This document shows, piece after piece, positions 5,819 through 64,000 of a DNA stretch of 64,000 bases (the stretch's first letter is position 1; the number at the start of each line of letters is the position of its first letter). The notes beneath the pieces are model-generated. The model was not told the origin of the DNA and ran no database searches. It was given only the letters and a program-made list of their open reading frames with translations. This stretch comes from Macrostomum lignano (lineage: Eukaryota), in the NCBI GenBank assembly GCA_002269645.1, contig NIVC01001639.1, forward strand, positions 192,202 through 256,201, written 5' to 3'. The position numbers and the translations under genes were made by a program.

Positions 5819-6299
5819 AGGTGGATAAGTGAGATCAGTGAGGCAAATTTGAGGCAGTAATCTAAAAATAGAATTTGGCAATTCTCAAAGGTAAACAAAG
5901 ATTCCGAAAGAAAACAGTTTTGAGGCAGCGGAAGTTTCCCACCCACCTGTCTGTTTCCGTCAATCATTTCACGGATTGGGACATCCGCAAACTCGACAAG
6001 CCATCGGTGCTTTGCAGCTAAATTTGGATATTCAAACGACAAACTGAATCGGGAATTGCTTTGTCAACAAATTCTTGTCAAGAATTGGCACGAATTCAAA
6101 TTTGCAGACGAAGCCTGTCTCGCGAAGTGTCAATGCAACCGGCAGCTGCTGTTTTCAAATGCCTGCCGCTGAGTCCACAGACACCGCAGGCAGTCCGTTT
6201 CCAGGCGCTCCGAAAGAGATGCAGCTTCTCTCTGGAACCTTTTTCTCACGTCGGGTAAGCTAAATATTTGCCATTTTAGTTAGAAATTCCTTTTTTAAT

Positions 6300-34400: not shown

Positions 34401-37323
34401 AATCACCTTAAATACTTTTAGGAGTCACCTAAAATCCTTTAGGAATCACCTAAAATTTTTTCAGGAGTCGCCTAAAATCCTAATAGTCACCTGAAATCCC
34501 TCTAGGGTTCACCTACGAGTACAACACGTATAAAGATCACCTAAAATACATTTAGGAGTCACCTAAATTCCTTTTAGGAGTCCCTAAAATACCTCTTAGA
34601 ATCACCTAAAATCCTTCTAATATTCACTATAATCTATAACCTTTAAAGATCACCTAAAATACTTTTAGGAGTCACCTAAAATTCCTTTAAGAGTCACCTA
34701 CAAAACTTTAGGAATCACCTTAGCTGATCAGCCTAGAATCAGGTAAGAATGAGCCTAAAAGCCCAGCATTTTGACAATCAAACACTCAGGTACCTGCTGG
34801 TGAATCCCAAGGAGCGGCCAGTGCTCCTAGTAGAGTCAGTGCTCTGTCCAACGCTGATTCGCGACACCGTAGCAGACGTGCTGTTCCATCACTTCGAAGC
34901 GCCATCGCTGCTGTTCGCCCCGGCTCATCTGCTCAGCCTGCTGCCGCTAGGCACCCAGACTGGCCTGGTGCTGGACTGCGGCTACAAAGAGGCCCTTGTA
35001 GTGCCCGTATTTCACGGAGTCTCCGTGCTCAAAGCTTGGCAAGCTGCTCCGCTGGGAGCTGAGGCTATTCATTTGAATTTGCAGCGCCTGCTGGGGTCTG
35101 AGGCTGCTCTTGATGGAGGAGAGAAGCTGGAGAAGGTAAGAATGATTCGGCACATGGGAGGGCAGTAACCAACTGACATGGTGACAGTGACCAGCTGACA
35201 TGGTGGCAGTGACCAGCTGACATGGTGGCAGTGAGCAACTGAAATGGTGGCAGTGACCAACTGACAGGGTGGCAGTGACCAACTGACTGGGTGGCAGTGA
35301 CCAACTGACAGGGTGGCAGTGACCAGCTGACTGGGTGGCAGTGACCAGCTGACTGGGTGGCAGTGACCAACGACTGGGTGGCAGTGACCAACTGACTGGG
35401 TGGCAGTGACCAACTGAAATGGTGGCAGTGACCAACTGAAATGGTGGCAGTGACCAACTGAAATGGTGGCAGTGACCAACTGACAGGGTGGCAGTGACCA
35501 GCTGACTGGGTGGCAGTGACCAACTGACTGGGTGGCAGTGACCAGCTGACTGGGTGGCAGTGACCAACTGAAATGGTGGCAATTACCAACTGACAGGGTG
35601 GCAGTGACCAACTGAAATGGTGGCAGTGACCAACTGACTGGGTGGCAGTGACCAACTGACATGGTGGCAGTGAGCAACTGAAATGGTGGCAGTGACCAAC
35701 TGACAGGGTGGCAATGACCAACTGACTGGGTGGCAGTGACCAGCTGACTGGGTGGCAGTGACCAACTGACTGGGTGGCAGTGACCAACTGACTGGGTGGC
35801 AGTGACCAACTGAAATGGTGGCAGTGACCAGCTGACTGGGTGGCAGTGACCAACTGACTGGGTGGCAGTGAGCAACTGACATGGTGGCAGTGACCAACCG
35901 ACTGGGTGGCAGTGACTATCTTGCAAAATAGAGAGACAAAAATGTTCAACTGAAGGATCCCTGAAGGGTTAGCGGTGGCTTACTGAAGGATCCTGAGGCG
36001 AGCTGGTCATTCACAGGACTCAAACCCAATAGCTGTCTAAAATTCATGCGCTCCGCAGACGCCCAACTGGCAGCGCCTCGTTCCCGAGTCGCTCTGCGAA
36101 GACATCAAAGTTCGCGCCTGTTTCGTCACCCGCCGAGCTCGCGCCGCTGCCTACGCTGCCGCCGCCGCCGCCGCGGCCTCCAGCGAAGACACCCCGTCGG
36201 CCTCGTCAGATCCGGAACCGCGGCCCGTGGACTTCGAGCTGCCGCTGGACGGCGGTCGTCGACTTCTAAGCGTCCCCGGCAGGGTTCGCGAGCTCGCCTG
36301 CGAGGCCCTGTTTGAGCCAGACTCTGATGGGGTCAGCCTGCCCGCTCTGCTGCTGGACTCCCTCCTGATGTGCCCTGTTGATCTGCGAGCACCGCTGGCC
36401 TCCAATATACTGGTGTGCCTGGGGATTTACTGATCTTTGAAATGGGATTTTTAGTGACTTGCAGCCCTCCCGATTCTCAAAATTGGATTCTCTGGGACTC
36501 TGAGCATCCCACACCCTGACCCTCAGCACCTCACACCCTGATTCTCAGTACCCCACACCCTAACCCTCAGCACCTCACACCCTGACCCTCAGCACCCCAC
36601 ACCCTGATTCTCAGTACCCCACACCCTGATTCTCAGCACCCCACACCCTGACCCTTAGCATCCTACACCCTGATCCTCAGCATCCCACACCCTGATTCTC
36701 AGTACCCCACACCCTGACCCTCAGCACCCCACACCCTGATTCTCAGTACCCCACACCCTGACCCTCAGCATCCCACACCCTGATCCTGTGTACCCCACCC
36801 TGATTCTCAGTACCCCACACCCTGACCCTCAGCACCCCACACCCTGATTCTCAGTACCCCACACCCTGATCCTCAGTACCCCACACCCTCACCCTCAGCA
36901 TTCCACACCCTGATCCTCAGCATCCCACACCCTGATCCTCAGCACCCCACAACCTGAGCCTCAGCATCCCACACCCTGACCCTCATCCGCGCCTCCTCCA
37001 TCCCGCAGGTGATCGGCGGCACGGCAATGCTGCCTGGGTTCAACTCGCGCCTACGCGAGGAGCTGACCGCCCTGCTGGAGCAGCCGCGCTACCGCCAACT
37101 GGCCGGCCTCGCCCCGTTCAAGTTTCACAGTCCGCCTGGCAAAGCAAATTTTATTGCTTGGCTGGGCGGCGCCATCATGGGCGCCCTGGAAGTGATGGGA
37201 GTTCGCGCCCTGACTCGGGAGCAGTACCGGCTTAGTGGCGACCGGATGCCCGACTGGCCGGAGTTCTTCCACGGGTCGCTGTCGTCTCAGGAGGAGGCCG
37301 CCAAAGGACTGGAGAGGCGGTGA
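31429..37323 (+). CDS. ACTR10: Actin-related protein 10 (Arp11, dynactin pointed-end subunit), 430 aa; exons 31429-31529, 33960-34044, 34124-34215, 34790-35135, 36059-36412, 37009-37323
   Basis: Motifs: IVVELGHSLTKCGIAGEFAPR, YLLVNPKERPVLLVES, GLVLDCGY, EDIKVRACFV, NILVIGGTAMLPGF, WLGGAIMG. Phases are consistent (1293 nt); intron 3 has a GC donor (AA/GCAAGT at 34216). Confidence 0.92.
31709..32019. mobile_element. hAT-type MITE in ACTR10 intron 1
   Basis: TIRs CAGTGGCAGATCTA and (reverse complement) TAGGGGCAGATTTT; perfect 8-bp TSD GGCCTAGT at 31701-31708 and 32020-32027; internal AAGCTTAGGGGCA repeats. Confidence 0.8.
32834..33065 (+). mobile_element. tRNA-derived SINE
   Basis: GGGGCCATAGCCTAGCGG (A box) and GGCTCAATTCC (B box); the body is collinear with the inverted copy at 19985-20227. 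Confidence 0.85.
34320..34720. repeat. Degenerate ~22-bp repeat with core GAATCACCTAAAATCC in ACTR10 intron 3
   Basis: Recurring core motif. Confidence 0.75.
35170..35915. repeat. 22-bp minisatellite (GTGGCAGTGACCAACTGACTGG)n in ACTR10 intron 4
   Basis: Tandem units visible. Confidence 0.95.
36500..36985. repeat. ~22-bp minisatellite (CACACCCTGACCCTCAGCACCC)n in ACTR10 intron 5
   Basis: Tandem units visible. Confidence 0.9.
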
Positions 37324-46187: not shown

Positions 46188-46275
46188 CAAGGGTGTCGCC
46201 ACGTGGGGGGGGGATGGGGATCATGTCCCCCCCCCCCCCGTGAAAGTCAATATTTTGCTTCAGGGCGACAAATAT
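46188..46275. mobile_element. Left part of a small hAT-like MITE interrupted by the LTR element (right part 57955-58120)
   Basis: Left end CAAGGGTGTCGCCA; right end TGTGACGCCCCTG at ~58108-58120 (reverse complement CAGGGGCGTCACA). The flanks match at only 5 of 8 positions. Confidence 0.4.
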
Positions 46276-47139
46276 TGATGTGTTCCTTATTACCCGACTT
46301 TCGATAATCAAGGAACAATCACTTCTAGCTCAACAGCTAGGCAACCCAGTAAGTCAAACGAAGGTATTCAATTACCTTTAATCCGGATTTGAATTTCTTG
46401 AGTAGTTCTCGCTAGGAACTTGTCAGTAGATCTCGTAGATCAGGCGCCTTGATTCTTCAGTTGCTCTGGTCCTGGTTCCTCTTGTACTTCCGATAAGTTC
46501 TTCCGGCCGGTATCTTCCGTCAGGACCAATCAGAGGCCTCGTAGCAACAATGGGTACCCTGCGCCAAACTGCGGTCTAAATTAAGCCTCCTTCTTCTAGC
46601 AGTGCCTCTATGCACTCTAGGTATAGCTCCGGAAACCACTGATAGTCCTCTAAGATCTATCAGGGGCAGTCCTTCTGGAGACTGCAACCAATGGAGTCTA
46701 AACAGACTCAAGAGTCTCAACAGACTCAATTAGACTCAAGTCTCAATAGACTTGAGCGAGACGTCTCTAACACAACGGGCGCAAATAAGGAAGGCTTACC
46801 GCAACAACTCGACCGAGTCTCGATTGACTTGGTAGATCAGGAAGTCCTCCTAAGGCTTCCTCTTCGGAGCGCTCCTCTTCCGTGGGGAGAATGGCTCCGG
46901 TACCGCTTCAGATCGCTTGTATTTATAGACAAGTTTTTGATCCAAAATAGTATCATGACAATTCACGTGTTGCGCTAAAAGGGGAAAATGGCTCATGGCG
47001 TATTATTCTGGTAACATCTTTTTCTGGTAGCGTGATTCATTCAAAGCTTAGGCGCACATGCGTGTACTTACTTACTTATAGTAGTATTATACGATTATCT
47101 TCTTTTTTCCTTTTTTAACGGGAGGTAGAACACTCTACA
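46276..47139 (-). repeat. 3' LTR (864 bp)
   Basis: Direct repeat of 57087-57950; no differences seen by eye, and both copies give identical ORF-track translations. Confidence 0.97.
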
Positions 47140-47142
47140 AAA

Positions 47143-47154
47143 TCTCCCTTTTTT
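47143..47154 (-). other. Polypurine tract AAAAAAGGGAGA
   Basis: Purine run 3 nt upstream of the 3' LTR on the element strand. Confidence 0.85.
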
Positions 47155-47381
47155 ACGAAAAAACTCGTCCCGAGTTTTAACAATGAAATAAAAATCTTGG
47201 GTAATTGAATTATTCCATACTTTAACTTTAAATTGGTTACATAATTCTCTTTATTAACATATATGCACGTAATATACATTGTGTGTTAATAAAGGTTAGT
47301 GGTGTTGAGTCCACGCTCAGTTAAAGTTAATCATGTCTTCTGCCGGGGATACCTGCTGTCCTCGCGCTGCTGCCGAGGCAT

Positions 47382-48014
47382 TCAGCCGAAGCTTGTCCTG
47401 AGCAGGCTGCTCACCTGATGCGTGGTTCGCGCCACCAGGGATGCCACTGCCCAGTACAGCGACTGAAACTTAGTGAATCGCGGATCCTCGGTCCGCTCCA
47501 GCAAAAGCAGATAGGCCTCTATGGTCGTAAGCGGTTCTGCTGTACGCACCATAGTCCTGGCGATGTCTAGTAACCACCGCCAGTCGGCCTGATGCTGAAG
47601 CGGCCATGGCCACGTTCGTACGGCGACGGCCAGCTGTTCCAGGGTTAGCTCATCCGGCTCCGCCAGCGTTAGCTCCGGTACGGCGAGCATCGGTGCCAGT
47701 AGTACGGATGCTGTGTTGGACAGCGGAGCCAGGCACACGGTGCACGTCATGATGTCTCGTGCACCGTACCGCTGAAGACAGCTGAAACACACCCAATGCC
47801 GATTTGAACAGAGTCGTACATTGGGCTGGTCGCCGCAAAGGGCACATTGGACCCGCGGTCTGCGACAGACGGGGCAGGCGGTAAGGATCGTCACGTCGCC
47901 AATTTCTCGCGCCCGCTCGTCGCAGGGGAAGCACACCTGGTGCCCCCATTCACAAGTCGGGAGCATCGGCTCCCGTGCCTCGAGGCAGCAGGGGCAGGTA
48001 TCCATCTCGGTCAT
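47382..48014 (-). CDS. Accessory double-RING protein B, 210 aa
   Basis: CPCC..C.WGH..C..C..CPVC followed by CALC..C..RH..C..C..CTVC gives two tandem RING-like Cys/His arrays. The ATG is directly preceded by CCCACAG, a possible splice acceptor. Confidence 0.8.
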   Translation of the reverse strand: MTEMDTCPCCLEAREPMLPTCEWGHQVCFPCDERAREIGDVTILTACPVCRRPRVQCALCGDQPNVRLCSNRHWVCFSCLQRYGARDIMTCTVCLAPLSNTASVLLAPMLAVPELTLAEPDELTLEQLAVAVRTWPWPLQHQADWRWLLDIARTMVRTAEPLTTIEAYLLLLERTEDPRFTKFQSLYWAVASLVARTTHQVSSLLRTSFG

Positions 48015-48084
48015 CTGTGGGCGATAGGTATAGGTATAGTTAGAATGATTGAGGATTATTCAAGATACGTAACAAGCATATGTT

Positions 48085-48753
48085 CTATCGGTGAGACCTA
48101 AAAAGCCAAATAAAATAGCTACGTGAGAGCACTAATCGTTTAAGCGCGTGGCAGTATACGTGTAGCGTCCAGTGAAATGATTCGTGGTCATGCAAAAACT
48201 GCCGCAACCGTCGCTCAATCTCCAAGGGTGACATATGACGCAAAAATCCTTGATTTCTATGAGCATATAATAGTAGCTGTCGTCGCGACCGCTGAACGAA
48301 GCGAGGTACAGGCCAAAACTCCAGCCGCCGTTCGATACTCATAGCGGTTAAGGTGTGCATAGTGTAAACGGATAAACAACGCGCTGGGTCAGGTATAATC
48401 CGACACCATTTCTTAAAAGTGTTTTCGCGGGGCATACTGTTACATAAGGGGCATCCTATAATGCCCCTACTAGCGGTTTGCTTCAAACAGTGCATGCAAA
48501 TAAAATGTTGGTGGTTACAATATTGAAACGTGCGCCAAGAATAACAATAGGCACATTGTCGCAAACTATCTCTACAGAGGGGACAACTCTGCCAGGGCTG
48601 AATATAGTGTGAATCACTTAAACATTGTCCGCAAACTTTATGTCCATTGATGCAAATAGTCGGTGGCTTGACAGCCAAGTCATCAGTTAAACATATCGGG
48701 CAGTCATATAGCTGCTGAGGCTGGGGCGCCTGTTTTGACAGTGCGTTGCCCAT
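48085..48753 (-). CDS. Accessory double-RING protein A, 222 aa, with N-terminal myristoylation motif
   Basis: The first ATG (48753) gives MGNALSK; the ORF-track start at 48765 is a TTG. CPIC..C.NGH..C..C..CPLC then CAYC..C..QH..C..C..CPLC; same layout as protein B. Confidence 0.8.
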   Translation of the reverse strand: MGNALSKQAPQPQQLYDCPICLTDDLAVKPPTICINGHKVCGQCLSDSHYIQPWQSCPLCRDSLRQCAYCYSWRTFQYCNHQHFICMHCLKQTASRGIIGCPLCNSMPRENTFKKWCRIIPDPARCLSVYTMHTLTAMSIERRLEFWPVPRFVQRSRRQLLLYAHRNQGFLRHMSPLEIERRLRQFLHDHESFHWTLHVYCHALKRLVLSRSYFIWLFRSHR

Positions 48754-48873
48754 AATTGTCGTCAATTTGTCGCTGTCTTTGTGTCGCTCGGATTAGTCGC
48801 CTTTTACGACAAGCTTGCGAAGCTGTAGTGCTATTCTTTATCCCGGTCACTACACGGGGTTGTTCTCTAAACT

Positions 48874-51800
48874 CTAGCGTGGTCGTAGGTTGTAGCCATG
48901 TGGCTGGCTCACATCTGTCGTTTGAGTCTCCTCGTGCTTCGTCGCGATGTGGCGGTTCGTTGAACGCGTGCGATCAGCGTTGTCTAATGTCGGTAGAAAC
49001 GTCGCTGTGTCAGTGTTGATCTTCTTTAGTCGATGAATGTGTACGTAGAACTGGTGCTGATGTGGATCTTGTACATTAGCCAGGCGTGCCGTTGTTGGTG
49101 ACGTTAGTTGGACCACTCGATAGGGTCCTTTGTACTTCTGTGCATGTTTATGCGTCTGCTGTGGCGGGTAGTGTAGGTAGACGATGTCGCCGGCCGTCAG
49201 GGTTGTCGATCTCGCGTCGTTGCCGGTGGTCAGAGCCACCTGGTTGTCAATGTTGTGCTTGGCGATCTTCCATGCGAGGTGTAGTTGCGTGACGAATTTC
49301 TGAATGGAAGTCGGTACTTCCACGTACTGCGATGGTAGCAATTGCTGTGCGAGCAGATTCGGCGGTTGGAAGTCTCGTCCAAACATTAGGAAGAATGGCG
49401 TATTGTCCGTTGATCGATGAATAGCGCTGTTGTAGGCCATTGTTACAGATTGCAGGTAGATGATCCAGTCTTCCGGCTGTTGGTGCGCGAAATGTGTAAT
49501 CATCTCGTGCAGGTTGCGGTGAAACCGTTCAACCATGTTTGCCTTCGGATTGTAGGTCGATGTGTAGATCTGCGTAATGTTGAGAATCCTTACGACTTGC
49601 TGAAACAGTTGCGATGTAAACTGCGATCCGTTGTCCGATGTGAGGTTCTTCGGCGTGCCGTACTTGCAAATGATTTCGTTGAAGAAACTCATTGCCACTG
49701 TCTGAGCTGTGATGTCCGGTATCGGTATGGCGATAGCAAACTTCGAGAAGATATCCAAGGCGGTTAGAATGTAGGTGTAGGCGATGCCCTGGAGACAGCT
49801 CGGTGGTAGCGGTCCGGTGATGTCGATGCTTAGACAGTCCATTGTAGTCGACTTCGGAATGGACTGTAGCTGCGGTTTCTGTCGTCGTCCTGTCTTTGAT
49901 GCAGCACATGAATGGCAGTTGTTGCAATACTGCTTGATGTCGCCGTACATAGTTGGCCAAAAGTAGTATTGTTCCACTCTCGCGATGGTCTTTGCTGCCG
50001 ACAGGTGTCCAGCGAGTGGGTTGTCGTGTAGCTCGTTGAGAATTGCTTGCCGAAACGAATATGGTATGTAGATCTTGGGTTTATTGTCGCTCATCCAGTA
50101 GAGCCGTGACTTATTGATTGTTAGGTGTTGTCGTTGCTTGCGTAGGAATTTTCGTTCCATGGGACTGAGTTTGATGTTCTTGTCGTCGTCTTTAACCGCT
50201 TGGTAGAAGTTGTCGCGCTCGGTTTCATCCACCAACTCCTTGATGTTAGGGATTGGATGAATGGCGTTGACTTCATAGGCTCTTGACAGGGCGTCCGCGG
50301 CTTTGTTGGTAATTCCTGGTTTGTAGACGAGTTTGTAGTTGTAATCCTGGATCTTGAGTGTCATTCTGATGAGTCGGTTGTTGGTCTGTCCTTTTGTAGT
50401 TACGACGTAGGTCAATGGTGCATGATCCGTGCGTACTATCGTCTGTATTGGAGAACCATAGATGTAGTAATGAAACTGTCGCAGGGCGAACAAGACTCCT
50501 AGTAGCTCTCGTTCCGTAGCTGACCACTTTGTTTCATTTGGTTTGAGTGCTCGACTGACGTAGGCAATAGGTCGTTCCTTCTTGTCCTCGGTTTCCTGTA
50601 GTAGGACTGCTCCGAGTCCCGTTCCTGAGGCGTCTGTCTCGATGATGAAGGGCTTGTCGAAGTCCGGATGCTGTAGCAGTGCGTCTGATGTCAGCTGTCG
50701 TTTGATTTCGTCGAAACTTTCCTGTTGTCTCTGTGTCCAGTTGTCTTGCTTCCATTTGTCGAACTTGAGCAGGTCGTACAGTGGCTTTGCTGTCTTTGCG
50801 AAGTTAGGTAAGAACTTCCTGAAGTATTGCGCAAGTCCAAGGAATGATTGGACCTTCGTTATACTGGTTGGCGTAGGAAACTTCTTCACCTTTTCCACGT
50901 TGTCTGGGTCCGGTGAGATTCCTTTGGCTGTCACCTGATGTCCCAGGTAACGCACGTTGTCTCGGAAGAATTTGCATTTAGTTGGTTGTAGCTTCAGACC
51001 TTGGCGTTGAATGAGCGCTAGGGCCTTCTCCGTAGCTTCGTAGAGTCGCTCGAAATCCTCTCCGTAGGCTAAAATGTCGTCGACATAGTGCAGCAGGTTC
51101 GTGCATCCTGCTAGCATGTATGCTGTTAGTCGACTCATCGTTGCTGGGCTGTTGCTAAGTCCCATCGGCGATCGATTGTACTCGTATACTTGTCCATTGT
51201 AGGTTTTGAAAGCCGTGTACTGTCGTGACTCTTTCTCGATTTCAATTTGCCAAAATCCATGACGTAGGTCGAACACCGTGAACAATTTTGCCGTGTTGAG
51301 CTTTGCTAGTAGTTCGGAGATCTTCGGTAGGCTTTGCTGATCCGTCGGTATGTACTTGTTCAACAGTCTGAAGTCGCATACGAGTCGTCTTTCGTTTGTC
51401 TCCTTCTTCTGTACCAGTAGGCACGGTGAGGAGTAAGCCGAAATAGCTTTGCTGATGATGCCGTGCTTTAGCATTTTATCGATGATTTCGTCAAAGTGTT
51501 GTTGCAGATGCTTGGCGATCGGGTACGGCTTGCACTGAATTGGTTCCGTGTGCGGCAGAAGTTTGATTTCCTGTTTGATGTCCTTGGCTCGTCCGATGTC
51601 GTAATCATGATGGCAGAAGGCTTCGTTGTACTTCCACAACAGCTGTCGAACTTTCCTCTTTTGCTGTTCCGTAATCGGGCTGTCATCCAAATTGATCTTC
51701 TTTTGAAATTCTTCCTCTGTTAGTCGTGGAGTCGCTTGTTCAATCAGCATAACCGATGCTTGGGTGTTGAGATGACCGATGCACATTCCTTGTCGTAGAT

Positions 51801-54800
51801 GAACCGTTTCTGTGTTCGGGTTGAAGATTTGTACTGGCAGTTGCTTATCCTTTGCAACCAGCACTAGTGCCGTAGGCATCATGATTTGATGTTTTGCCGT
51901 GACTCTCCTGTGTGGATCAAATATCATTGCTTCATCTGCCGCGCTGGTCGTTTTCGCTCTGACCCAGCATGCGCTTTCAGGCTGGATAATGACATCTTGC
52001 TGCAGAGTTACTTTCGGTAGTACTCGAATCTGGTTGATCAGCGGTTGCTCCACCGTGTCGATCCTAAACGTTTGCTTGTTGAAGTCGAAGGTCAATGGTA
52101 GTTGAAGCTGCTTGAACGTGTCGATTCCAACGATGACGTCTTGGTTTGGTAGTCTGTCGATGATGTACGTCGGGACCGTCAGCTGTTTATTAGCAATTTT
52201 CAAGTCGATATCTGCTTTTCCTAGGATGTTGAGTGAATGTCCTCCTGCTCCTGCAACTGCGATTGCTGCTGGTCGTACCGCGAGTCGTAGCTTGTTGCAT
52301 AATTGTTGCGAGATGACTGTGATCGAGCTGCCTGAATCCAGTAGTGCTCGACATGGCAAGTTGTTGACAATGACCTGAGCCATTGCTTTGCCAATCTCGG
52401 CGTGTAGCGTACAGACGTAGTTTTCCGGCCATTTTGGCTCGTGCTGTTCTGCTTGATAGTTGGGTGGTTGTATCCTTGGTGCCGTTGGTGTTGTCGGAAT
52501 CGATGGATATAGCCGCGTTGCTAGTGTCGGTTGCCCTTGAACCTCACAATGTGCAGTTTCTGTTAGTTCTAAACTGTTGTCGCTTTCCGTTGTCGTTCTT
52601 TGCATTATGGCATTCACTGTCTTCTTAGCTCTTGGACAAGTTTGACTGAAGCACCGTACGATCGATGAAATGATGAAGATTGCCGTGACAATCCACACAA
52701 TGCAAGCACCGTAGAAGATGAATCCTTGATAGAGACTGCCTCTTCCATTGAGCAGCTCCCAGAAGCTATTTGTCCAAAATGATTTGATGGCGCTGTCCAT
52801 TGAAACAAGGACGGGAAATCTTCCTGTCCCGGTTCCTTTGTCCTTTCTTGTGAACAGCTGGTGAATCATCTTGCGTTGGGTGATGAACGCTTGCAAGAAG
52901 TCGTTGATCGTCCATCCTGGTGTTATCTCGTCAAGTTGGATATCGGCGAATGGCGTATACTTCGTTCTGTTGAATCGGATTTTCAAATCCTCCATGTCGT
53001 AGTTTTCGTCGACGATTACTTCCGGTTCTGTGACGTTTGCTGTCGTTCCAGTTGTTTTGATGACGTGTAGTGCATTGTCCAGTTGATAGTAGTTTACTGC
53101 CGTGGTGCAAGGTCTCGGTATTGCGGTGCCAACGATGATGTTGTGTACCGTGTCCAAGAATCCCTGAATTCGTTTTCCTTCGTAGAACGCTTCAATCCTT
53201 GGCTTATCGTAGCAGGTTGTTGACGTGTTTGACGGCAAGATGTTAAAGTGCTGTATCGGCGTGCACTTGTATATCAACAGATGCTCGTATATTGGAACTG
53301 CCAAAACGTTCGTCATTCCGGTGATTTTACGAAAAGTCATCGTAGGGTTGACATAGTAGTTTTGTCTGGCATAATTTAAGTTGATTGCGTGCATTTTGCA
53401 AGTTAGCTGGACCAGTGTTCGATGCAAGTGGTTTAACTGGTTGTGTAGATTGTGATCCAAAGCCGTTATCTTTGCTGACAACAGCCGGTTTGACACCAGT
53501 TTGGGACGTTCGATGTCACGTCGTCTTCTATTCTGTTTTTCTTGTTGCTGATACGTTCCATTGATGATTGCCAAGAAGGTTTGTTTGTCTTCATCCTTTA
53601 CGTAGACTGGTATCTCTTGTTCCGAGATGAATAGTGTCTTGTCTGTATCCTTGCATTTCAGTTTTTGCTCGACTGGTTTCTTTTGAAACGTCAGTGCCAA
53701 GTCTCCTGACTTTGCCAAAAACGTATTTGACAGTAGTCCTCCTTCAACTGTGTGATACTTTTGAAGCTTGCAGTCAATTTCCGGCTCAACTTCCCACGCG
53801 AAGAAGTATTGTCGTGATTTGTACGGTTCCTCATAGTGTGATTGTGCTCTGTGCTCAATCTGCCATCGATAGTCTTGATGATATGTTGGACTCAGTGGTA
53901 GACTGTGTAGTTCTTCCTTCCGTAGAATCGGCGTTGGACACCATCCTTCACTGTATCGACATTCGCTTAGTTGCAGCTGTAACGATTCCATTTTCTCGTA
54001 CGGATTGTAGTAGAATGGAATATTTCTGATCAAGTAGCTGTTGCGTGCCATATATTCTTTCCATTTTCCGAAGAAGTGAATATATCGACCGTTGGCTGAA
54101 TTCTTTGTTCTGAACAGCTGTGCGTTGCCGACCTTCTCATCTGGTTCCAGTTCACCATCCTTTGAAAATAGTGTTTGATTCCATTGTAGGCATTCCGCGT
54201 GCGACACATGTAGCTCATGTTGTTTAAATCGGATCCGGTTCCATTGTCCGCGCCAAACTTTTTCCACCAGGTGCTTGTCTCTGAAGCATACTATCCCGTG
54301 TTGTCGATGCTTCTTGATGTTAGCCTTGTAGAGATCGAGTGTAATCTTCTTTGGTTTTGTCTGGTTTGTCTTGAAGTAACTGCATTTGATGTCGGTTGGT
54401 ATCTTGTAGATCATCGGTTGGATATGCGCATCCGTTGGACAAATCATTGGCTTTTCCGTTGCCGTTGCTTTGGCGACTACTGCTATCAGTAGTATCACGA
54501 TGATCCAGAATAGCCAGTTTTTCCACTTCTTGGATTTTGCCGTTGTCCTTGCTGGCATTGGCTGCGATCGCCATTCGTTATCTTCCATGTCCGCATCATA
54601 TTCTTTCGGTTGTTCCATTGGCTGATCCAGGCGGAAGGCTTCTGATTCGCTTTGCTTTTTGGTTATTTCATTATCTTCGTCTGCGGCTTCTTCCGATGTT
54701 TCCGTTGTTTCACTCCATTGCGTTTGGTATCTTTTCTCTGTCTTGTAGTCGACCGTTTGAATATAGGCTTCACCATTTCGTTTGTATCGGATCTCGTAGC

Positions 54801-56370
54801 ATTCGTCGCTGTCGGAACTCGGCTTTTCTTTCACCTGTTCTTTTTCCATTTCTTCATCTTTCCATTGTATTTCGTAGCCTTGATCGCTGTCGGAACTTAG
54901 ATTCTCCGCTCTCGGTTCTTCCTGCATTCCTCTTTCGGCTTGGTAGTCGTTCGTGTCATCACGCACCTCGCAGTCGTGGTCGTTGCCGTAACTTCTACAT
55001 TCTTCTTCTTCTTTCATTTCTTTGTCTTTCATGCTCGTTTTGTCGTCATCCACTGTTGTCGATTCATAGTTGTTTTCTTCGCCGGTTTTCATCTTTTCTT
55101 CGTTGCCGATGTCGCTCTCCGCCTCCTCCCTTGTCTTGTGATTTACTTTCTTCCTGTTTTCTCTGCTGTCTCCGGTGGTCTCTTTTAATTTGATCATTTC
55201 GGTTTCATTCGTCTCTTCTGTGTTGTCAGTGTTGTCCTCGTGCGTCGTCTTCTTTTCGATCAAGCTGATGTCAAGTTCCGGGACTGTGAAGTCCATTTCC
55301 AAGTCGTCAATTGTGAACACTTGCTGTTCTTGCTGTTCATTTTCCGGTGTGTACGTGATGGCATTCGCGTATCGTGGCATTGCTTGCGTCGGCTGTCTTT
55401 GTGTGTATCTGACGTTGCGTGGCCTGTAGCCATTACTTCTGAAGCGGCCTTCGTTTCCGAAGCGGCCATCATTTCCGGAGCGGTCATTATTTCCGAAGCG
55501 TCTATCATTTCCGAAGCGTCTCATTCCTTGTTGTTGGCGATTTTGATAGTGCTGCCATGGTTTCTGCGGCTTCTGATTGTTGAATATCTGTCGCGGCTTG
55601 TCGTATCTTGTTGACCAATGAGGACAATTAATCTGATAATGTCCTTCTTGTCCGCAGTAGTAACATCTGGCTGAGGCTTGTTCATTTCGTCTTTTTTGTT
55701 CGGCGATAGCAGCTGTCTGGTGCTGCATTAACTTGTTTAGTTGCTGCGTCAGTTTCTGCACTTCATTGTTGCCTGTCGTCATTAATGGGGCACTGGCTTC
55801 CCATTGCATTCCGCAACGCAAAAGGTCTTCTTCGGTTTCGATATTTTCACGCAAAAGTCTATCCCGAAGTGACGGCTGTGCGTTGTTTATTACGTGCAGG
55901 ATGAGGTTTTGTTCACGATCCATCAATCGTTGTCTTTCTCTGGCGGCCAATTCTGCCGCTCCCAGTGGTGGTTGGTCCGCAGCTTGCAGCGGTGGCTGAT
56001 GCAGTGCCTTAATTATCTGGCGGATATCGTCCACAAAGGCGAGGAAGGATTCTGTTGCTTGCATCCTTCTGTTATGCAACTTGTGCAGCAGCACTGATCT
56101 GTTTGTGCCGCAACGGTTGAAATGCGCGCGCAGTTGAATGATTAGTGCTGGATAATTTTGCTGTGTTGCCGCATCCAGCTTGCCGTAAATTTCTCGCGCA
56201 GTACCTTGGAGAAGAGGTGGCAGCAGCTGTGCCTTCTCTGGATTTTGTAGGTTGTATTCCCTACATACCAGGTCAAAATGGTCGACAAATGTGTTAAAAT
56301 CTTTCTCCATCGAGAAAGTACCGACCGTTTCTTTGATGTCTCTGTGTACCGTTGGATTGCGCCGCGCCAT
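48874..56370 (-). CDS. Gag-Env-Pol polyprotein, 2498 aa
   Basis: Gag with CCHC knuckle CYYCGQEGHYQINC (55624-55665); hydrophobic signal WLFWIIVILLIAVVAKATA (~54461-54517); Cys-rich ectodomain with N-glycosylation sequons and furin-like RRRR (53518-53529); TM segment (~52660-52725); protease LLDSGS (~52327-52344); RT YVDD (51076-51087); RNase H TDASGTGLGAVL; integrase HHCC, DDE and GPY motifs. Confidence 0.95.
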   Translation of the reverse strand: MARRNPTVHRDIKETVGTFSMEKDFNTFVDHFDLVCREYNLQNPEKAQLLPPLLQGTAREIYGKLDAATQQNYPALIIQLRAHFNRCGTNRSVLLHKLHNRRMQATESFLAFVDDIRQIIKALHQPPLQAADQPPLGAAELAARERQRLMDREQNLILHVINNAQPSLRDRLLRENIETEEDLLRCGMQWEASAPLMTTGNNEVQKLTQQLNKLMQHQTAAIAEQKRRNEQASARCYYCGQEGHYQINCPHWSTRYDKPRQIFNNQKPQKPWQHYQNRQQQGMRRFGNDRRFGNNDRSGNDGRFGNEGRFRSNGYRPRNVRYTQRQPTQAMPRYANAITYTPENEQQEQQVFTIDDLEMDFTVPELDISLIEKKTTHEDNTDNTEETNETEMIKLKETTGDSRENRKKVNHKTREEAESDIGNEEKMKTGEENNYESTTVDDDKTSMKDKEMKEEEECRSYGNDHDCEVRDDTNDYQAERGMQEEPRAENLSSDSDQGYEIQWKDEEMEKEQVKEKPSSDSDECYEIRYKRNGEAYIQTVDYKTEKRYQTQWSETTETSEEAADEDNEITKKQSESEAFRLDQPMEQPKEYDADMEDNEWRSQPMPARTTAKSKKWKNWLFWIIVILLIAVVAKATATEKPMICPTDAHIQPMIYKIPTDIKCSYFKTNQTKPKKITLDLYKANIKKHRQHGIVCFRDKHLVEKVWRGQWNRIRFKQHELHVSHAECLQWNQTLFSKDGELEPDEKVGNAQLFRTKNSANGRYIHFFGKWKEYMARNSYLIRNIPFYYNPYEKMESLQLQLSECRYSEGWCPTPILRKEELHSLPLSPTYHQDYRWQIEHRAQSHYEEPYKSRQYFFAWEVEPEIDCKLQKYHTVEGGLLSNTFLAKSGDLALTFQKKPVEQKLKCKDTDKTLFISEQEIPVYVKDEDKQTFLAIINGTYQQQEKQNRRRRDIERPKLVSNRLLSAKITALDHNLHNQLNHLHRTLVQLTCKMHAINLNYARQNYYVNPTMTFRKITGMTNVLAVPIYEHLLIYKCTPIQHFNILPSNTSTTCYDKPRIEAFYEGKRIQGFLDTVHNIIVGTAIPRPCTTAVNYYQLDNALHVIKTTGTTANVTEPEVIVDENYDMEDLKIRFNRTKYTPFADIQLDEITPGWTINDFLQAFITQRKMIHQLFTRKDKGTGTGRFPVLVSMDSAIKSFWTNSFWELLNGRGSLYQGFIFYGACIVWIVTAIFIISSIVRCFSQTCPRAKKTVNAIMQRTTTESDNSLELTETAHCEVQGQPTLATRLYPSIPTTPTAPRIQPPNYQAEQHEPKWPENYVCTLHAEIGKAMAQVIVNNLPCRALLDSGSSITVISQQLCNKLRLAVRPAAIAVAGAGGHSLNILGKADIDLKIANKQLTVPTYIIDRLPNQDVIVGIDTFKQLQLPLTFDFNKQTFRIDTVEQPLINQIRVLPKVTLQQDVIIQPESACWVRAKTTSAADEAMIFDPHRRVTAKHQIMMPTALVLVAKDKQLPVQIFNPNTETVHLRQGMCIGHLNTQASVMLIEQATPRLTEEEFQKKINLDDSPITEQQKRKVRQLLWKYNEAFCHHDYDIGRAKDIKQEIKLLPHTEPIQCKPYPIAKHLQQHFDEIIDKMLKHGIISKAISAYSSPCLLVQKKETNERRLVCDFRLLNKYIPTDQQSLPKISELLAKLNTAKLFTVFDLRHGFWQIEIEKESRQYTAFKTYNGQVYEYNRSPMGLSNSPATMSRLTAYMLAGCTNLLHYVDDILAYGEDFERLYEATEKALALIQRQGLKLQPTKCKFFRDNVRYLGHQVTAKGISPDPDNVEKVKKFPTPTSITKVQSFLGLAQYFRKFLPNFAKTAKPLYDLLKFDKWKQDNWTQRQQESFDEIKRQLTSDALLQHPDFDKPFIIETDASGTGLGAVLLQETEDKKERPIAYVSRALKPNETKWSATERELLGVLFALRQFHYYIYGSPIQTIVRTDHAPLTYVVTTKGQTNNRLIRMTLKIQDYNYKLVYKPGITNKAADALSRAYEVNAIHPIPNIKELVDETERDNFYQAVKDDDKNIKLSPMERKFLRKQRQHLTINKSRLYWMSDNKPKIYIPYSFRQAILNELHDNPLAGHLSAAKTIARVEQYYFWPTMYGDIKQYCNNCHSCAASKTGRRQKPQLQSIPKSTTMDCLSIDITGPLPPSCLQGIAYTYILTALDIFSKFAIAIPIPDITAQTVAMSFFNEIICKYGTPKNLTSDNGSQFTSQLFQQVVRILNITQIYTSTYNPKANMVERFHRNLHEMITHFAHQQPEDWIIYLQSVTMAYNSAIHRSTDNTPFFLMFGRDFQPPNLLAQQLLPSQYVEVPTSIQKFVTQLHLAWKIAKHNIDNQVALTTGNDARSTTLTAGDIVYLHYPPQQTHKHAQKYKGPYRVVQLTSPTTARLANVQDPHQHQFYVHIHRLKKINTDTATFLPTLDNADRTRSTNRHIATKHEETQTTDVSQPHGYNLRPR

Positions 56371-57066
56371 GTTGTTGATAGGGTAGAACGGTAGTTCAAG
56401 ATCTGGATCGATTTGTAACGGATCGTCCAGTGTGGTGTTTGCCTCGGAATAAACCTCGACTGTAACGAATTGCCTTGTGGTGTCGATTTGTTATTCGCTG
56501 GCCTCGGATGCGGTGTGGCTTGCTGCCACTGGTTGTCCTCAAATGAACTTGTTCTGTTCGCTTGCTGATTTCGCACTTATGCGGCGTCCCGCAAAGTGTA
56601 TCTTCAAGTTGAAGTGGACTTGTCTTCTTGCTTTGCAAAGTCTTTCTTCTCTTCTTTGACTCTCTCTCTTTTGTCAATTAACTCTGCTCTCCACGAAGTT
56701 TCAATTAATTTCGGTTTTGTTTTAGTTTTTGTGCCGGCAAAATGTTTCAGTTATTTTTTGTTTGTTTTGCGTCGACGATTCTTTTTATTTTTGGTTTGTT
56801 TTCAGTGTACCGACGAAGTTAATTTCGGTTTTGTTTTAAACTCACACTTGCTCGAGCTCGTCAAAACAAAATTTTAACACGCGTGCTCAAACTGTACTCA
56901 AATTTGACAGGTGCTCAAACCTGTACACCAAATTTTACTCGAGTTTCAAAACGTAACGGACTTAAAAAGTGTTAACTCTAACACGTGCGCGCAAAATTAA
57001 TGAAGTCGCTCTGTCGTCACTTTACAATAGCTTGGCCAGGCTATTGCTCAAGGTTTGAGTAGTGCC

Positions 57067-57084
57067 GAGAGGGCGAGATCACCA
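57067..57084 (-). other. Primer-binding site TGGTGATCTCGCCCTCTC (tRNA-Trp-like by its TGGTGA start; assignment tentative)
   Basis: TGG begins 2 nt after the 5' LTR on the element strand. Confidence 0.75.
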
Positions 57085-57086
57085 AT

Positions 57087-57950
57087 TGATGTGTTCCTTA
57101 TTACCCGACTTTCGATAATCAAGGAACAATCACTTCTAGCTCAACAGCTAGGCAACCCAGTAAGTCAAACGAAGGTATTCAATTACCTTTAATCCGGATT
57201 TGAATTTCTTGAGTAGTTCTCGCTAGGAACTTGTCAGTAGATCTCGTAGATCAGGCGCCTTGATTCTTCAGTTGCTCTGGTCCTGGTTCCTCTTGTACTT
57301 CCGATAAGTTCTTCCGGCCGGTATCTTCCGTCAGGACCAATCAGAGGCCTCGTAGCAACAATGGGTACCCTGCGCCAAACTGCGGTCTAAATTAAGCCTC
57401 CTTCTTCTAGCAGTGCCTCTATGCACTCTAGGTATAGCTCCGGAAACCACTGATAGTCCTCTAAGATCTATCAGGGGCAGTCCTTCTGGAGACTGCAACC
57501 AATGGAGTCTAAACAGACTCAAGAGTCTCAACAGACTCAATTAGACTCAAGTCTCAATAGACTTGAGCGAGACGTCTCTAACACAACGGGCGCAAATAAG
57601 GAAGGCTTACCGCAACAACTCGACCGAGTCTCGATTGACTTGGTAGATCAGGAAGTCCTCCTAAGGCTTCCTCTTCGGAGCGCTCCTCTTCCGTGGGGAG
57701 AATGGCTCCGGTACCGCTTCAGATCGCTTGTATTTATAGACAAGTTTTTGATCCAAAATAGTATCATGACAATTCACGTGTTGCGCTAAAAGGGGAAAAT
57801 GGCTCATGGCGTATTATTCTGGTAACATCTTTTTCTGGTAGCGTGATTCATTCAAAGCTTAGGCGCACATGCGTGTACTTACTTACTTATAGTAGTATTA
57901 TACGATTATCTTCTTTTTTCCTTTTTTAACGGGAGGTAGAACACTCTACA
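57087..57950 (-). repeat. 5' LTR (864 bp)
   Basis: Reads TGTAGAGTG...CACATCA on the element strand; repeat of 46276-47139. Confidence 0.97.
57732..57738 (-). promoter_or_regulatory. Candidate LTR TATA box (TATAAAT)
   Basis: Motif ~210 nt into the 5' LTR on the element strand; positional plausibility only. Confidence 0.4.
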
Positions 57951-58696
57951 ATATATAGCGCCTGCGGCACCAAACACGAGTTCCTGCAGCGCAAAAAATG
58001 CCTGCGACGCCAAATGAGCGCTGACAACACCGATTCTAAAAATAATGTAAAATGTTAAAATGTATAATTCTTGCGGCTTAATTTGTTCCCCACCATAAAA
58101 TCAATCTTGTGACGCCCCTGCCACAACAGTACATGTAACTCACAAACCTTCTGTCGTAAATGCACATGCAAGTCGTATATAGCCAGTAGAAGTGACTAAA
58201 AAGAGAATCAAAGTTGTAGATGGGGTTGGTACATGTTTGTTAGCCCGACAAACGACGAGAGTGTAGGCCTGAAGCCATAACCATGCCTAGACTCATTCGT
58301 CTTTTTCTCTTTTGATTTCCATTTACCTTAAGATATTGAGTTTAAATACTTTTAGTATTTTTAACATTAATTTACTTGCACTTCTTATTCATACAGCGAA
58401 AATATTTTTACTTCCTTTTAAATATTAGTTGACGTATGCTCCGGTATCTGAGGCTTACTCTATGTTTCAAGTAAATAATTGTCGTAAAACACGAAAATGT
58501 TCATGTATTACTACCACATTAAAGACAGTGTTGCCTAGCCAATCAACAGCCGCCATGCAAAACACGCTACGAATTTCAACTTAAATGCGTCAACCGAAAG
58601 AAATCTAGATATTTCTTTACCAATTCCCCTCCTCGTATTTTGCGCTAGTGTGTTGTCCTGTTAAAACTATATTTTGATTGAAATTCTTACGTTAAT

Positions 58697-60469
58697 ATGT
58701 GGCTGTCGAGCTTTTTGGCATTTGCTCTGCTTGCTCTCGCATGCGGTGAAGTTTACTTCAAGGAGGAGTTTTTAGATGGTAAGTTAGTTCTCGCTCTGAC
58801 GTTTATTTTGTTTAGATTCTCAAATTCCCTTGTGTTGCTGCAATACTAGAATAGGGCATTGTCTTGTTGGTTTTCTTCATTTCAACCATATCAGAATATT
58901 AAAGTAACTAAAAATAGTATTGAAATCATTCCATTCTTTTTAACTTTGCACATTCAAGCAGTTAAAATAACCCCCTTGTGTTAGCTTTGCATTTTGTTCT
59001 AAAAGAATAAACTGTGGTTACTGGTTTACTTTTTTATAGTTTTTGAAAGATAATTCATTAAAAAGGCTTCTATTATTGAGTATGAGAGAGAAAGGAAGTA
59101 TAGGTTTCTAGCTAGCTACTTTAATTTAATTGTAACATATTATAAGATTGTTTTATAACTTCACAATTTTTTTGTTTCCTTAAAGACTATTTGTATATAT
59201 ATATATTGCCTATCTTTACATTTTTCTATGTTTCTCCTAATGTAAAATCCTTTGATTTAAATATTTATTTTTTTCTTTTAATTTTAATTATATGCTTTGC
59301 TAATTTGTCTTCACAAAATATTTATTTCAGAGTCATGGAAGGATCGGTGGGTAGAGTCAACCTACAAGGGTAATGACCAAGGCAAATGGGAATGGACTGC
59401 TGGCAAGTTCTACAATGATGCTGAAAAGGACAAGGGAATAAAAACCTCCCAGGATGCCAAATTTTATGGCATCAGTGCCAAGTTCAACTCTCCATTCTCC
59501 AATGCTGGCAAGACTCTGGTGATCCAATTCCAGGTCAAGCATGAGCAGAACATTGACTGCGGTGGTGGCTATGTCAAAGTCCTTGGCAGCGATGTTGACC
59601 AGAAGAACTTCCACGGCGACACACCCTACAAGATCATGTTTGGTCCTGATATCTGCGGCCCTGGCACTAAGAAGGTGCACGTTATCTTCAACTACAAGGG
59701 CAAGAATTTGCTCACCAAGAAGGAGATTCGCTGCAAGGATGACGAGCTAAGCCACCTGTACACCCTGATTGTGAAGCCTGACAACACCTACGAGGTGCTG
59801 ATTGACAACGAGCGAGCCGAAGGTGGAGAACTCGAGGCCGACTGGGACTTCCTGCCACCCAAGAAGATCAAGGATCCGGCCGCCAAGAAGCCAGACGACT
59901 GGGACGAGCGCGAGAAAATTGACGACCCGAACGACAAGAAGCCGGAGGACTGGGACAAGCCCAAGACCATCCCGGATCCCAAGGCCAAGAAGCCGGACGA
60001 CTGGGACGACGAGATGGACGGCGAATGGGAGCCGCCGATGATTGACAACCCGGACTACAAGGGCGACTGGAAGCCCAAGCAGATTGACAACCCGGCCTAC
60101 AAGGGCAAGTGGATCCACCCGGAGATTGACAACCCGGACTACTCGCCGGACCCCGAGCTGTACAAGTACACCGACATCGGCGCCATCGGCTTCGACCTGT
60201 GGCAGGTGAAATCTGGCTCCATCTTCGACAACGTCTTCGTTGGCGACGACCCGGCCGAGGCCAAGGCCTTCGCCGACGAGACCTTCAAGAAGACCGTCGA
60301 AGGCGAGAAGAAGATGAAGGAGAAGCAGGACGAGGAGGACAAGAAGAAGGCGGAGGAAGAGGAGAAGAAGCGCAAAGAGGAGGAGGAGAAGAAGAAGGCC
60401 GAGGAGGGCGACAAGAAGGAAGCGGACAAGAAGGAGGACGACAAGAAGGACACCAAGGACGAGCTGTAG
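58697..60469 (+). CDS. CALR: Calreticulin, 406 aa; exons 58697-58778 and 59331-60469
   Basis: Signal peptide MWLSSFLAFALLALACG, then EVYFKEEF. Motifs KHEQNIDCGGGYVK and IMFGPDICG; P-domain repeats (KPDDWD, GEWEPPMIDNPDYKG); acidic tail ending KDEL; phase-1 GT-AG intron. Confidence 0.97.
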
Positions 60470-62469
60470 AGAGCGGCTTCCGTTGCCTAGGGCCTCTGTA
60501 TTTGCGGTTGGGCGGCTGGCACTCCAACTAGTTTATAAATAGTTCTTAAATTTCAATTTCGAGCTCACGCAACAAAATTTTGGCTGAATAAATTGACACG
60601 CAAAACGGCATTTCCAGCGGCCCCGTGCAACTGCAACTCCCTCTGTCTGCTTTCCTGTGTCGAATAGCCATCTCTCTCTCGTACCGCACAATATTTGTCC
60701 CTATCCCGGCATAGATGTGGTAGAACTAATTACACCTGGTGGATCAGCTATTATCTATCGTTGTTATTAATAATACTCCCAATATAGTAAGTAGCTAGAC
60801 TTAATTAACGTTGCTTAATGATTTTTTACTCCTTTTCTCTCCATCCAGCGGACATTTTGTCACTCTGAGCCCCGACTGCTTGTTAGTTAAAAAGGGAAAG
60901 TTTTTTATACGTTCATTATTGTTATTTATTTGTTAGAATGATTCTAATTAATACACGCTTAAGCCTAATTTTTTGCACACATTTTTTGGTTGCAATCGGA
61001 GGCACAAGTTTCCATGCTTCACAATATAAAACCATAATTGCCACACTGATCCCAGGCCCATGCGCAATAATTGTGCCAATGCTAACCAAAATAAATGCCA
61101 TCCCGTTTAAAACTGGGTCTAGTAATAGCCATATTATTATATAGTAGCGCCCAGTCAACCAGGGGCTGCAATAATTACTTTTCTTATTTGTAATATTGAA
61201 ATCTATCGGAACTCACCCAGTGTCTTTGTTTGGCCACAACAAACCCCGCAATGATTTGTTTAAAACTTCCCGCTCCTTGCTCTGGTGTCATTTAAATAAA
61301 CCCAACCTTCTGTCTGTTTCCTTCGATTATATATCGACTATTTATGTTGTCACGTTGAGTAAATATATAATATCTCTGTTTTTTGGAACTCATTCTGTTA
61401 TGCGAAACTATGCTAAATAATAAATAAATAAATATGGAATGTTTAGAACAAATTAACTATGTTCAAAGATCTTACATACACAATCTCAAAGGTAATATAT
61501 GATATAATATATGAGTAATTATGTTATAGTCTAATTAGCGCGCAAAACAGCTATAAAGTGCTTGTAAACTACTGATCTCGAATTTGTCAGTAGTCTTGCC
61601 GCAACTTTTATTTCTACCAGATATCATCACTGGTTCTAGCTCGTAATACATGTAGCTTTACATGAAAAGACGAAGCAGAACTCTGAAAATTAGTGCTATT
61701 TTCGTGAAGTCAAAGAAAAAAGACTCGAATGAACTGCAACTATTTATTCTCTACTAATAGTAGAGCTTATAGAACCGCGTTTAGCAAACAAAATTGTTGA
61801 AACTGTTGGAATGCAGCTCAATCTTAGTGGTCCTACGTGTGCTGTGCATGTACAGTATGTGCTGGTCCGATCTATTTATAAAGACCAAGTTTCAAATTTG
61901 CATAAGAGAAAAAAGCACAGCAATTCTTCTTTCGGCAAAAAAGACGGCCAAGTCCGCGAAACTAAACTGTGCCAATTGCAAGTCATTCCAAGGCAAACAA
62001 CATTTTATTGGCACACTTTACAGCCTAAATTTATCCATTCTGATTCTCTCGCCGTCTGTCTCCTGTCAGCTCTAATTCACAGAAGTGTAGTGTGCAGGTG
62101 CAGGTGCGTTCATAAACTCAACTCTTGACACGCCTAAAAGGGGGCGGTTGTGCGCGAGTACGTGCGTCTACGAATACGTTACAGATTCATTATATGCAGA
62201 GAAATGCTAAAAAGCGAAACAGAAAAACACCCGAACACCGAGACAGCTATAAGCTCTATTTGCGCTTATAAACAGCTCGTCCTGTCTGCACACCAACTAT
62301 TAGCTAAAGTGTCAACTTTACTCTCCGTGGGTCTCTCAGTTAAACTGCAGAACTTTGATATACACCTATAACAGCACTGCTTAGTTGCTCAGCGACCTCC
62401 GAGTGTGACCCGATGCTGACCGACAGATCGATGTGAGTTCGTTTATAATACACAATTTTTTATTCCCCT

Positions 62470-64000
62470 TACAGGTGTATGTTTGATTCCCATGCAGATA
62501 TTTTGTTTACCCTGCAGATATCTGTTTGATTCCGCTGCAGATTAGCTGTTTGATTCCGCTGAGATAGCTGTTTGATTCCCCTACAGATATCTGTTTGATT
62601 CCCCTTACAGATATCTGTTTGATTCCCTTACAGATATCTGCTTGATTCCCCTACAGATATCTGCTTGATTCCGCTGCAGATATCTGCTTGATTCCCCTAC
62701 AGATATCTGTTTGATTCCCTCAGATATCTGTTTGATTCCCTACAGATATCTGTTTGATTCCCTACAGATATCTGTTTGATTCCCTACAGATATCTGTTTG
62801 ATTCCGCTGCAGATATCTGCTTGATTCCCTACAGATATCTGTTTGATTCCCCTACAGATATCTGCTTGATTCCGCTGCAGATATCTGTTTGATTCCCCTA
62901 CAGATATCTGCTTGATTCCGCTGCAGATATCTGTTTGATTCCCCTACAGATATCTGTTTGATTCCGCTGCAGATATCTGTTTGATTCCCTTACAGATATC
63001 TGCTTGATTCCGCTGCAGATATCTGTTTGATTCCCCTACAGATATCTGTTTGATATCTCTACAGATATCTGTTTGATTCCCTACAGATATCTGCTTGATT
63101 CCCTACAGATATCTGTTTGATTCCGCTGCAGATATCTGTTGATTCCCTACAGATATCTGTTTGATTCCCCTTACAGATATCTGCTGATTCCGCTGCAGAT
63201 ATCTGCTTGATTCCCCTACAGATATCTGCTTGATTCCCGCTACAGATATCTGTTGATTCCCTACAGATATCTGTTTGATTCCGCTGCAGATATCTGTTTG
63301 ATTCCCCTTACAGATATCTGCTTGATTCCCTACAGATATCTGTTTTGATTCCCCTACAGATATCTGCTTGATTCCCCTACAGATATCTGTTTGATTCCCT
63401 ACAGATATCTGTTTGATTCCCCTACAGATATCTCTCTGTTTGATTCCCCTACAGATATCTGTTTGATTCCCCTACAGATATCTGTTTGATTCCCCTACAG
63501 ATATCTGTTTGATTCCCCTACAGATATCTGTTTGATTCCCCTACAGATATCTGTTTGATTCCCCTACAGATATCTGTTTGATTCCCCTACAGATATCTGT
63601 TTGATTCCCCTACAGATATCTGTTTGATTCCCCTACAGATATCTGTTTGATTCCCCTACAGATATCTGTTTGATTCCCCTACAGATATCTGTTTGATTCC
63701 CTACAGATATCTGTTTGATTCCCCTACAGATATCTGTTTTGATTCCCCTACAGATATCTGTTTGATTCCCCTACAGATATCTGTTTGATTCCCCTACAGA
63801 TATCTGTTTGATTCCCCTACAGATATCTGTTTGATTCCCCTACAGATATCTGTTTGATTCCCCTACAGATATCTGTTTGATTCCCCTACAGATATCTGTT
63901 TGATTTCCCCTACAGATATCTGTTTGATTCCCCTACAGATATCTGTTTGATTCCCCTACAGATATCTGTTTGATTCCCTACAGATATCTGTTTGATTCCC
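62470..64000. repeat. ~24-bp satellite (CAGATATCTGTTTGATTCCCCTA)n running off the window end
   Basis: Tandem units with the palindromic core CAGATATCTG. Confidence 0.95.

Follow-up and report, generated by a model that had tools for sequence, protein, structure and literature searches.

The window analysed here, a stretch of 64,000 nt from Macrostomum lignano, contains on its minus strand a complete LTR element (46276-57950) that encloses a single Gag-Env-Pol reading frame. Very probably this is a recent copy of a multi-copy Ty3/gypsy GAG-ENV-POL element of M. lignano with an env of the HSV/gB type, identified by its features with the published family Mlig_errantivirus_2.

The element is bounded by a 5' LTR (57087..57950) and a 3' LTR (46276..47139), both of 864 nt with TG...CA ends, and the LTR spacing in this copy is 10,811. 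Since the two LTRs are identical, the insertion is a recent one. It is flanked by a target-site duplication, ATAT, whose 5' copy lies at 57951..57954 and whose 3' copy lies at 46272..46275, likewise on the minus strand; in two sibling insertions the duplications measure 5 bp and 4 bp. The primer-binding site (PBS; 57073..57084, minus) is located 2 nt beyond the 5' LTR, and the polypurine tract (PPT; 47143..47154, minus) 3 nt ahead of the 3' LTR. The TG...CA LTRs, the PBS, the PPT and a target duplication in the range of 4-6 bp are all features of Ty3/gypsy elements (Metaviridae).

The Gag-Env-Pol ORF (48874..56370, minus strand, as are all its parts) encodes 2498 aa without an internal stop. 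Along the frame one finds first Gag (aa 1-260; 55591..56370), with a CCHC knuckle at aa 236-249 that is plain in the sequence, even if the Pfam zf-CCHC match at aa 236-251 (E 0.003) falls under the curated cut-off. It is followed by an acidic low-complexity linker (aa 261-612, approximately 24% D+E; 54535..55590), and by a putative internal signal (54457..54534) recognized from hydropathy and charge, in which a basic stretch precedes a hydrophobic core at aa 619-633 and A-X-A-like sites near aa 633-637 suggest where cleavage could occur. Next come the Env ectodomain (52732..54450), with an RRRR motif at 53518-53529, and a transmembrane (TM) helix (aa 1216-1238; 52657..52725, from hydropathy) with a tail of about 90 aa. 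Only then does Pol begin, in which Pfam identifies an aspartyl protease (PR, aa 1330-1426, with LLDSG at aa 1343; 52093..52383), the reverse transcriptase core (RT, aa 1654-1813, with YVDD at aa 1762; 50932..51411), RNase H (RH, aa 1878-2010; 50341..50739) and integrase (IN, H2C2 and core, aa 2102-2275; 49546..50067). The ORF list, Pfam and hydropathy thus bear out the single unbroken gag-env-pol frame of a preliminary description made from the letters alone, which had left unmentioned the LTRs, the PBS, the PPT, the target duplication and two double-RING ORFs farther downstream.

The two strongest hydrophobic segments of the entire chain on the Kyte-Doolittle scale are those just named, aa 619-633 (15-mer score 3.11, preceded by the basic stretch) and aa 1216-1238 (19-mer score 2.43, 15-mer score 2.73), the next best segment scoring 1.85. 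As judged from hydropathy and charge only, they are compatible with the proposed two-pass topology. Between them lie approximately 575 aa with 6 N-X-S/T sequons, 12 Cys and the RRRR motif (aa 948-951). To call this ectodomain Cys-rich was an overstatement, because its Cys content (2.1%, vs 2.3% in Gag and 1.4% in Pol) is unremarkable.

Searches with the single ectodomain sequence were uninformative, as no Pfam family was recognized and nothing better than E 0.66 was found in the PDB; a profile and a fold were needed. A search of 1.84 billion representatives returned 71 relatives at E<=0.001, and a profile built from the query and 45 of these 71 relatives was run against the PDB sequences. All 43 matches at E<=1 are herpesvirus gB (best E 2.6e-16). 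An AlphaFold model of the ectodomain (pLDDT 75.8, pTM 0.50) was matched by Foldseek to the gB of HSV-1, KSHV, CMV and EBV (best E 1.6e-20, prob 1.0, TM 0.26-0.46). The ectodomain is therefore a herpesvirus gB-like class III fusogen, set with its conserved cysteines between a signal/TM segment and a TM helix, and by profile and fold the middle block is the true envelope that it had been taken for. A UniRef protein labelled Macrostomum lignano has 98% identity to the covered part of env, a match that identifies the host.

With the order PR-RT-RH-IN and an H2C2 integrase, Pol has the Pfam domain arrangement of Ty3/gypsy, and a Pfam scan found no Pao-specific domains in the window protein. In Drosophila errantiviruses env is a separate, spliced ORF and Pol is reached by a frameshift. 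These elements (gypsy, ZAM, Idefix) have in common with the window element a Ty3/gypsy Pol, an env and the PBS/PPT/LTR anatomy; their env, however, is of the F type and is located after pol (PMC13524379). An errantivirus in the strict insect sense (gypsy/ZAM) was rejected as an identification, since the env of the window element is of the gB type and precedes pol. The same fusogen class as in the window element occurs in BEL/Pao elements of mosquitoes, which carry a gB/chuvirus-like glycoprotein (Dezordi et al. 2020, cited in PMC13524379). A BEL/Pao element with a gB-like env was also rejected: the window protein has no Peptidase_A17 (Pao protease) and its env is not after IN, whereas in a BEL/Pao homologue found in our searches (P0064) env follows IN.

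The preliminary description knew of no element with this layout, and believed that in nematode Gypsy elements with an env this gene is located 3' of pol. Neither statement holds. According to Chary & Hayashi (eLife 2026, PMC13524379), HSV/gB is the sole type of ENV in the errantiviruses of Nematoda, Bryozoa and Platyhelminthes, whose genes are arranged GAG-ENV-POL, and in nematodes only this order, and no GAG-POL-ENV ERV, was found. All the elements catalogued there were classed as Ty3/gypsy by GyDB HMMs, those of the GAG-ENV-POL arrangement are not monophyletic, and the authors regard the transmission mechanisms of such elements as still elusive. They credit the first report of the flipped order, in nematodes, to Sacco et al. 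2022 (J Gen Virol, doi 10.1099/jgv.0.001739). An env before pol in a metavirus is common to those ERVs and to the window element, but their hosts are nematodes and the host here is a flatworm; because GAG-ENV-POL elements are not monophyletic, the nematode ERVs may represent a separate lineage.

M. lignano itself is represented in the published table by one element only, Platyhelminthes_Rhabditophora_Mlig_errantivirus_2 (PMC13524379, Supplementary file 1), described as ENV_HSV and GAG-ENV-POL, with 16 copies, LTRs of approximately 864 nt and a spacing of approximately 9.73 kb. The window element agrees with it in host, ENV_HSV type, order, LTR length and multi-copy state, and the reverse complement of its PBS is the 12-mer listed for that family. 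The listed spacing is that of a sibling copy (L031/L032), which is 99.4% identical to the window element over 9.46 kb, has an LTR spacing of approximately 9.73 kb and is without about 1.1 kb of the RING region. The window copy is a longer variant, with approximately 1.1 kb of extra 3' sequence and two RING ORFs as against one. The element thus apparently belongs to Mlig_errantivirus_2, the match being one of features rather than of sequence. With the order and apparently the family already catalogued, the claim of novelty fails: the gene order is published and is not new to science, an outcome that the preliminary description had itself named as refuting it.

What the literature holds beyond the order is more limited. 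In our literature search on the gag-env-pol order PMC13524379 alone described the layout, and its main text, aside from figures that may bear on these points, does not mention the fusion into a single polyprotein, its topology or the RING ORFs. Neither env, glycoprotein nor RING is mentioned in the accessible text of the M. lignano LTR survey PMC12801592, and that of PMC4604429 holds nothing on the window element. A description of the threading mechanism was not found in the literature searched, within the accessible text of its papers; Sacco et al. 2022 may cover the point. Likewise, double-RING ORFs after pol were not found described in the accessible text of PMC13524379 and PMC12801592 or in our literature searches. 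The nematode elements in which the flipped order was first seen are said to have a continuous gag-env-pro-pol ORF with additional downstream ORFs.

A search of the genome with env, in which 70 of 264 candidates were scored, gave at least 73 matches. Twelve of the 73 reach 100% over the full query; the open frame around the match measures >=2,400 aa in 11 cases and less in 62, the window being counted among both the 12 and the 11. Intact ORFs, LTRs and multiple near-identical copies are thus present, as in a GAG-ENV-POL element of the HSV/gB type. In the best 30 loci of this search the linker is found upstream and PR downstream of env in every case (30/30), and the frame from env through PR is open in 20; siblings therefore share the env block at the identical place, contrary to what a one-off insertion, the exception allowed for in the preliminary description, would produce. 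A divergent subfamily with 62% env identity also has one ORF (2480/2479 aa), and keeps both hydrophobic segments, the basic N-flank, the furin motif and both RING ORFs. Over the ectodomain it is 64% identical to the window element, with all 12 Cys retained (12/12); the acidic linker, at 26% identity, is the fastest-changing part. Against three closer siblings the dN/dS values of the env ectodomain are 0.028/0.32, 0.026/0.48 and 0.029/0.30 (ratio approximately 0.05-0.10): env is under purifying selection.

Some further observations concern the history of these copies. Synonymous divergence is very uneven along the ORF when the window is compared with L035, L038 and L041; for L035 dS is 0.03 over Gag and 0.04 over RNase H, compared with 0.32 over Env and 0.74 around PR, a pattern pointing to recombination between subfamilies. 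A copy on G000 C1470 (L033) is 99.97% identical to the window element and is probably one locus assembled twice or a homeologue; it does not count as an independent insertion, because its 5' flank is the same as that of the window. Pairs of env matches occur on G000 C669 (6524 and 17311, 10,787 nt apart) and C2447 (187518 and 197247, 9,729 nt apart), spacings close to a single unit from LTR to LTR in the long and the short variant, respectively, and suggestive of head-to-tail arrays with common LTRs. Dense clusters of copies are seen on several contigs, including C2121, C1130 and C87.

The fused order is not confined to this family. Among 19 long homologues, picked for length from the 71 matches, 8 combine CCHC, env, PR and RT, arranged in this sequence, within a single chain; some of these 8 are gene models that may hide frameshifts. 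The order recurs both in the divergent subfamily and in database homologues. The full-order homologues include P0005 of M. lignano, P0054 of Globodera rostochiensis and the contig-called ORFs P0044 and P0057. At their Gag end the env-bearing homologues have Pfam matches to Retrotrans_gag or Ty3_capsid, and several match Monjiviricetes_fusion or Glycoprotein_B. The two-pass pattern is not apparent in every case: with a simple hydropathy scan, at least one of the two hydrophobic segments escaped recognition in 6 of the 8 homologues with the full order. P0005 identifies a second, distant Gag-Env-Pol family in M. lignano (2852 aa, 28% env identity, 5 cluster members).

The two accessory ORFs, which follow pol and precede the 3' LTR, each have two tandem RING-like fingers: ORF 1 (222 aa; 48085..48753, minus), whose RING Pfam matches are under the curated cut-off, and its paralogue ORF 2 (210 aa; 47382..48014, minus), with 25% identity between them. 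The orthologue of ORF 1 in the divergent subfamily is 40% identical. A genome search for this cassette (150 scored of 214 candidates) gave at least 151 matches, with one to three or more RING ORFs per locus. Six of 10 sibling copies (L031, L035, L038-L041) cease to match the window within ORF 1 and represent one-RING or shortened variants; two RING ORFs are kept in other siblings (L034/L043, L036/L042, L037), and three or more, spaced apart, are seen at some loci, for example on G000 C1063, C1405, C272 and C4009. An Atlas search with ORF 1 retrieved viral RING clusters at 0.86-0.91, under the recognition level and thus no more than a lead. The RING ORFs probably encode E3-ligase-like accessory proteins, which would be translated by reinitiation or from a subgenomic RNA. 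Immediately ahead of its ATG, ORF 2 has a pyrimidine-rich CACAG similar to a splice acceptor.

Elsewhere in the window a host calreticulin exon with a KDEL end is located on the plus strand at 59288-60469 (Pfam E 1.5e-85), approximately 1.3 kb past the 5' LTR, and a 23-nt satellite array with a palindromic core occupies 62458-64000. The stop-free stretches at 4788-5860, 15252-16589, 24896-27750 and 34947-35979, which are open in several frames on both strands and have strong base skews, are probably simple repeats. Of 10 long frames outside the element that were compared with Pfam, 8 matched nothing and 2 gave weak matches under the cut-off.

These features can be put together in a plausible model, inferred from hydropathy and charge, in which the polyprotein is threaded through the ER membrane. 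The full-length RNA would be translated as one polyprotein, with Gag and the acidic linker synthesised in the cytosol; the internal signal, its basic side remaining cytosolic, would then open translocation, and the gB ectodomain would enter the ER lumen to be glycosylated and disulphide-bonded, until transfer is halted at the TM helix, leaving PR-RT-RH-IN on the cytosolic side, attached to the tail of Env. A signal peptidase cut at the lumenal side would free the N-terminus of Env, and cleavage of RRRR by furin would follow later in the secretory path. The preliminary description had Gag itself freed by signal peptidase. As a matter of general knowledge this enzyme cuts on the lumenal side, so that Gag, together with the acidic linker, would remain attached through the stub of the signal and could be released only by PR or another protease; the stub would hold Gag on the membrane and could act as its membrane anchor. 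Clustering of Gag and Env trimers would dimerise PR, which would release Pol from the Env tail and Gag from the linker. The outcome would be enveloped particles that move from cell to cell, probably from soma to germ line or stem cells, much as those of Drosophila errantiviruses do. In the structural polyproteins of flaviviruses and alphaviruses, and with the Env leader of foamy viruses, an internal signal behind the capsid initiates translocation of the glycoprotein and doubles as the membrane anchor of the capsid; the resemblance is one of analogy and not of homology, the fusogens there being of class II or I rather than III.

A strict 1:1:1 ratio of Gag, Env and Pol would place as many Pol as Gag molecules in each capsid. 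The Ty3 capsid consists of several hundred Gag, and a further Gag-only product or turnover of Pol may thus be needed. This capsid stoichiometry, which favours an excess of Gag, lends some weight to a reading that we consider unlikely but take seriously, namely that the identity of the element is as proposed but its products are made mainly by other routes than the fused ORF. Gag alone and an env-skipping Gag-Pol would then arise through alternative splicing, early polyadenylation or ribosome drop-off, in a ratio other than 1:1:1. There is a precedent in Copia, whose Gag is made from a spliced RNA, and the downstream RING ORFs require non-canonical expression anyway, the CACAG before ORF 2 being acceptor-like. 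On the other hand, between subfamilies that have reached saturation at synonymous sites, the gag-env and env-pol junctions have kept their frame and acquired no stop, which is what one would expect if translation through the entire chain is important. Contigs are neutral on this point: among 15 joints in contigs from 4 runs none connects the end of Gag to PR (0/15), but contigs cannot show absence and so provide no evidence against an env-skipping splice. None of the sequence runs with the element is recorded as RNA, and 14 of 19 were guessed to be RNA. Some contigs have long joints (53697-57087 in two runs, 48859-53741, 49610-56176 and 50725-57086); on the coding strand none of these is bounded by GT..AG, and they have the appearance of non-autonomous copies with internal deletions.

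It is improbable that the role of Env is purely intracellular, namely to provide a membrane scaffold on which particles assemble or bud at the ER, and that it takes no part in entry into other cells, the element transposing cell-autonomously. Env-less IAP elements do bud intracisternally, and the window element is without gD/gH/gL-like partners, which herpesvirus gB needs (PMC13524379). Conservation of the gB-like fold, of all 12 Cys and of the furin motif under purifying selection would be needless, however, for a mere scaffold. Other class III fusogens, such as rhabdovirus G and GP64, work alone. That the env block entered this one copy by an in-frame insertion, or reflects a chimeric assembly, is ruled out by the 30/30 loci, the divergent subfamily and the other species, and contigs from independent runs bridge both sides of the block, from Gag to the signal (54412-56143 in X2; 54412-56266 in X7) and from the ectodomain to the PR region (52236-53244 in X1).

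Returning to the ER-threaded polyprotein, it is quite possible, if short of probable, that the working principle of GAG-ENV-POL elements is undescribed: the Env signal would serve as the anchor of Gag and the Env tail as the tether by which Pol is packaged, giving enveloped particles from one polyprotein with neither a frameshift nor an env splice, in the company of a conserved and expandable double-RING cassette of potential E3 ligases directed against host defence. As a discovery the element adds little, because its order and apparently its family are catalogued, and the double-RING cargo offers a minor additional lead. It is rather a convenient case in which to study the threading, cleavage and packaging of GAG-ENV-POL polyproteins, and the role that a gB-type env plays for a retrotransposon: since M. 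lignano is transgenically tractable (PMC12801592) and carries many near-identical copies, the native RNA, protein and particles are directly open to examination.
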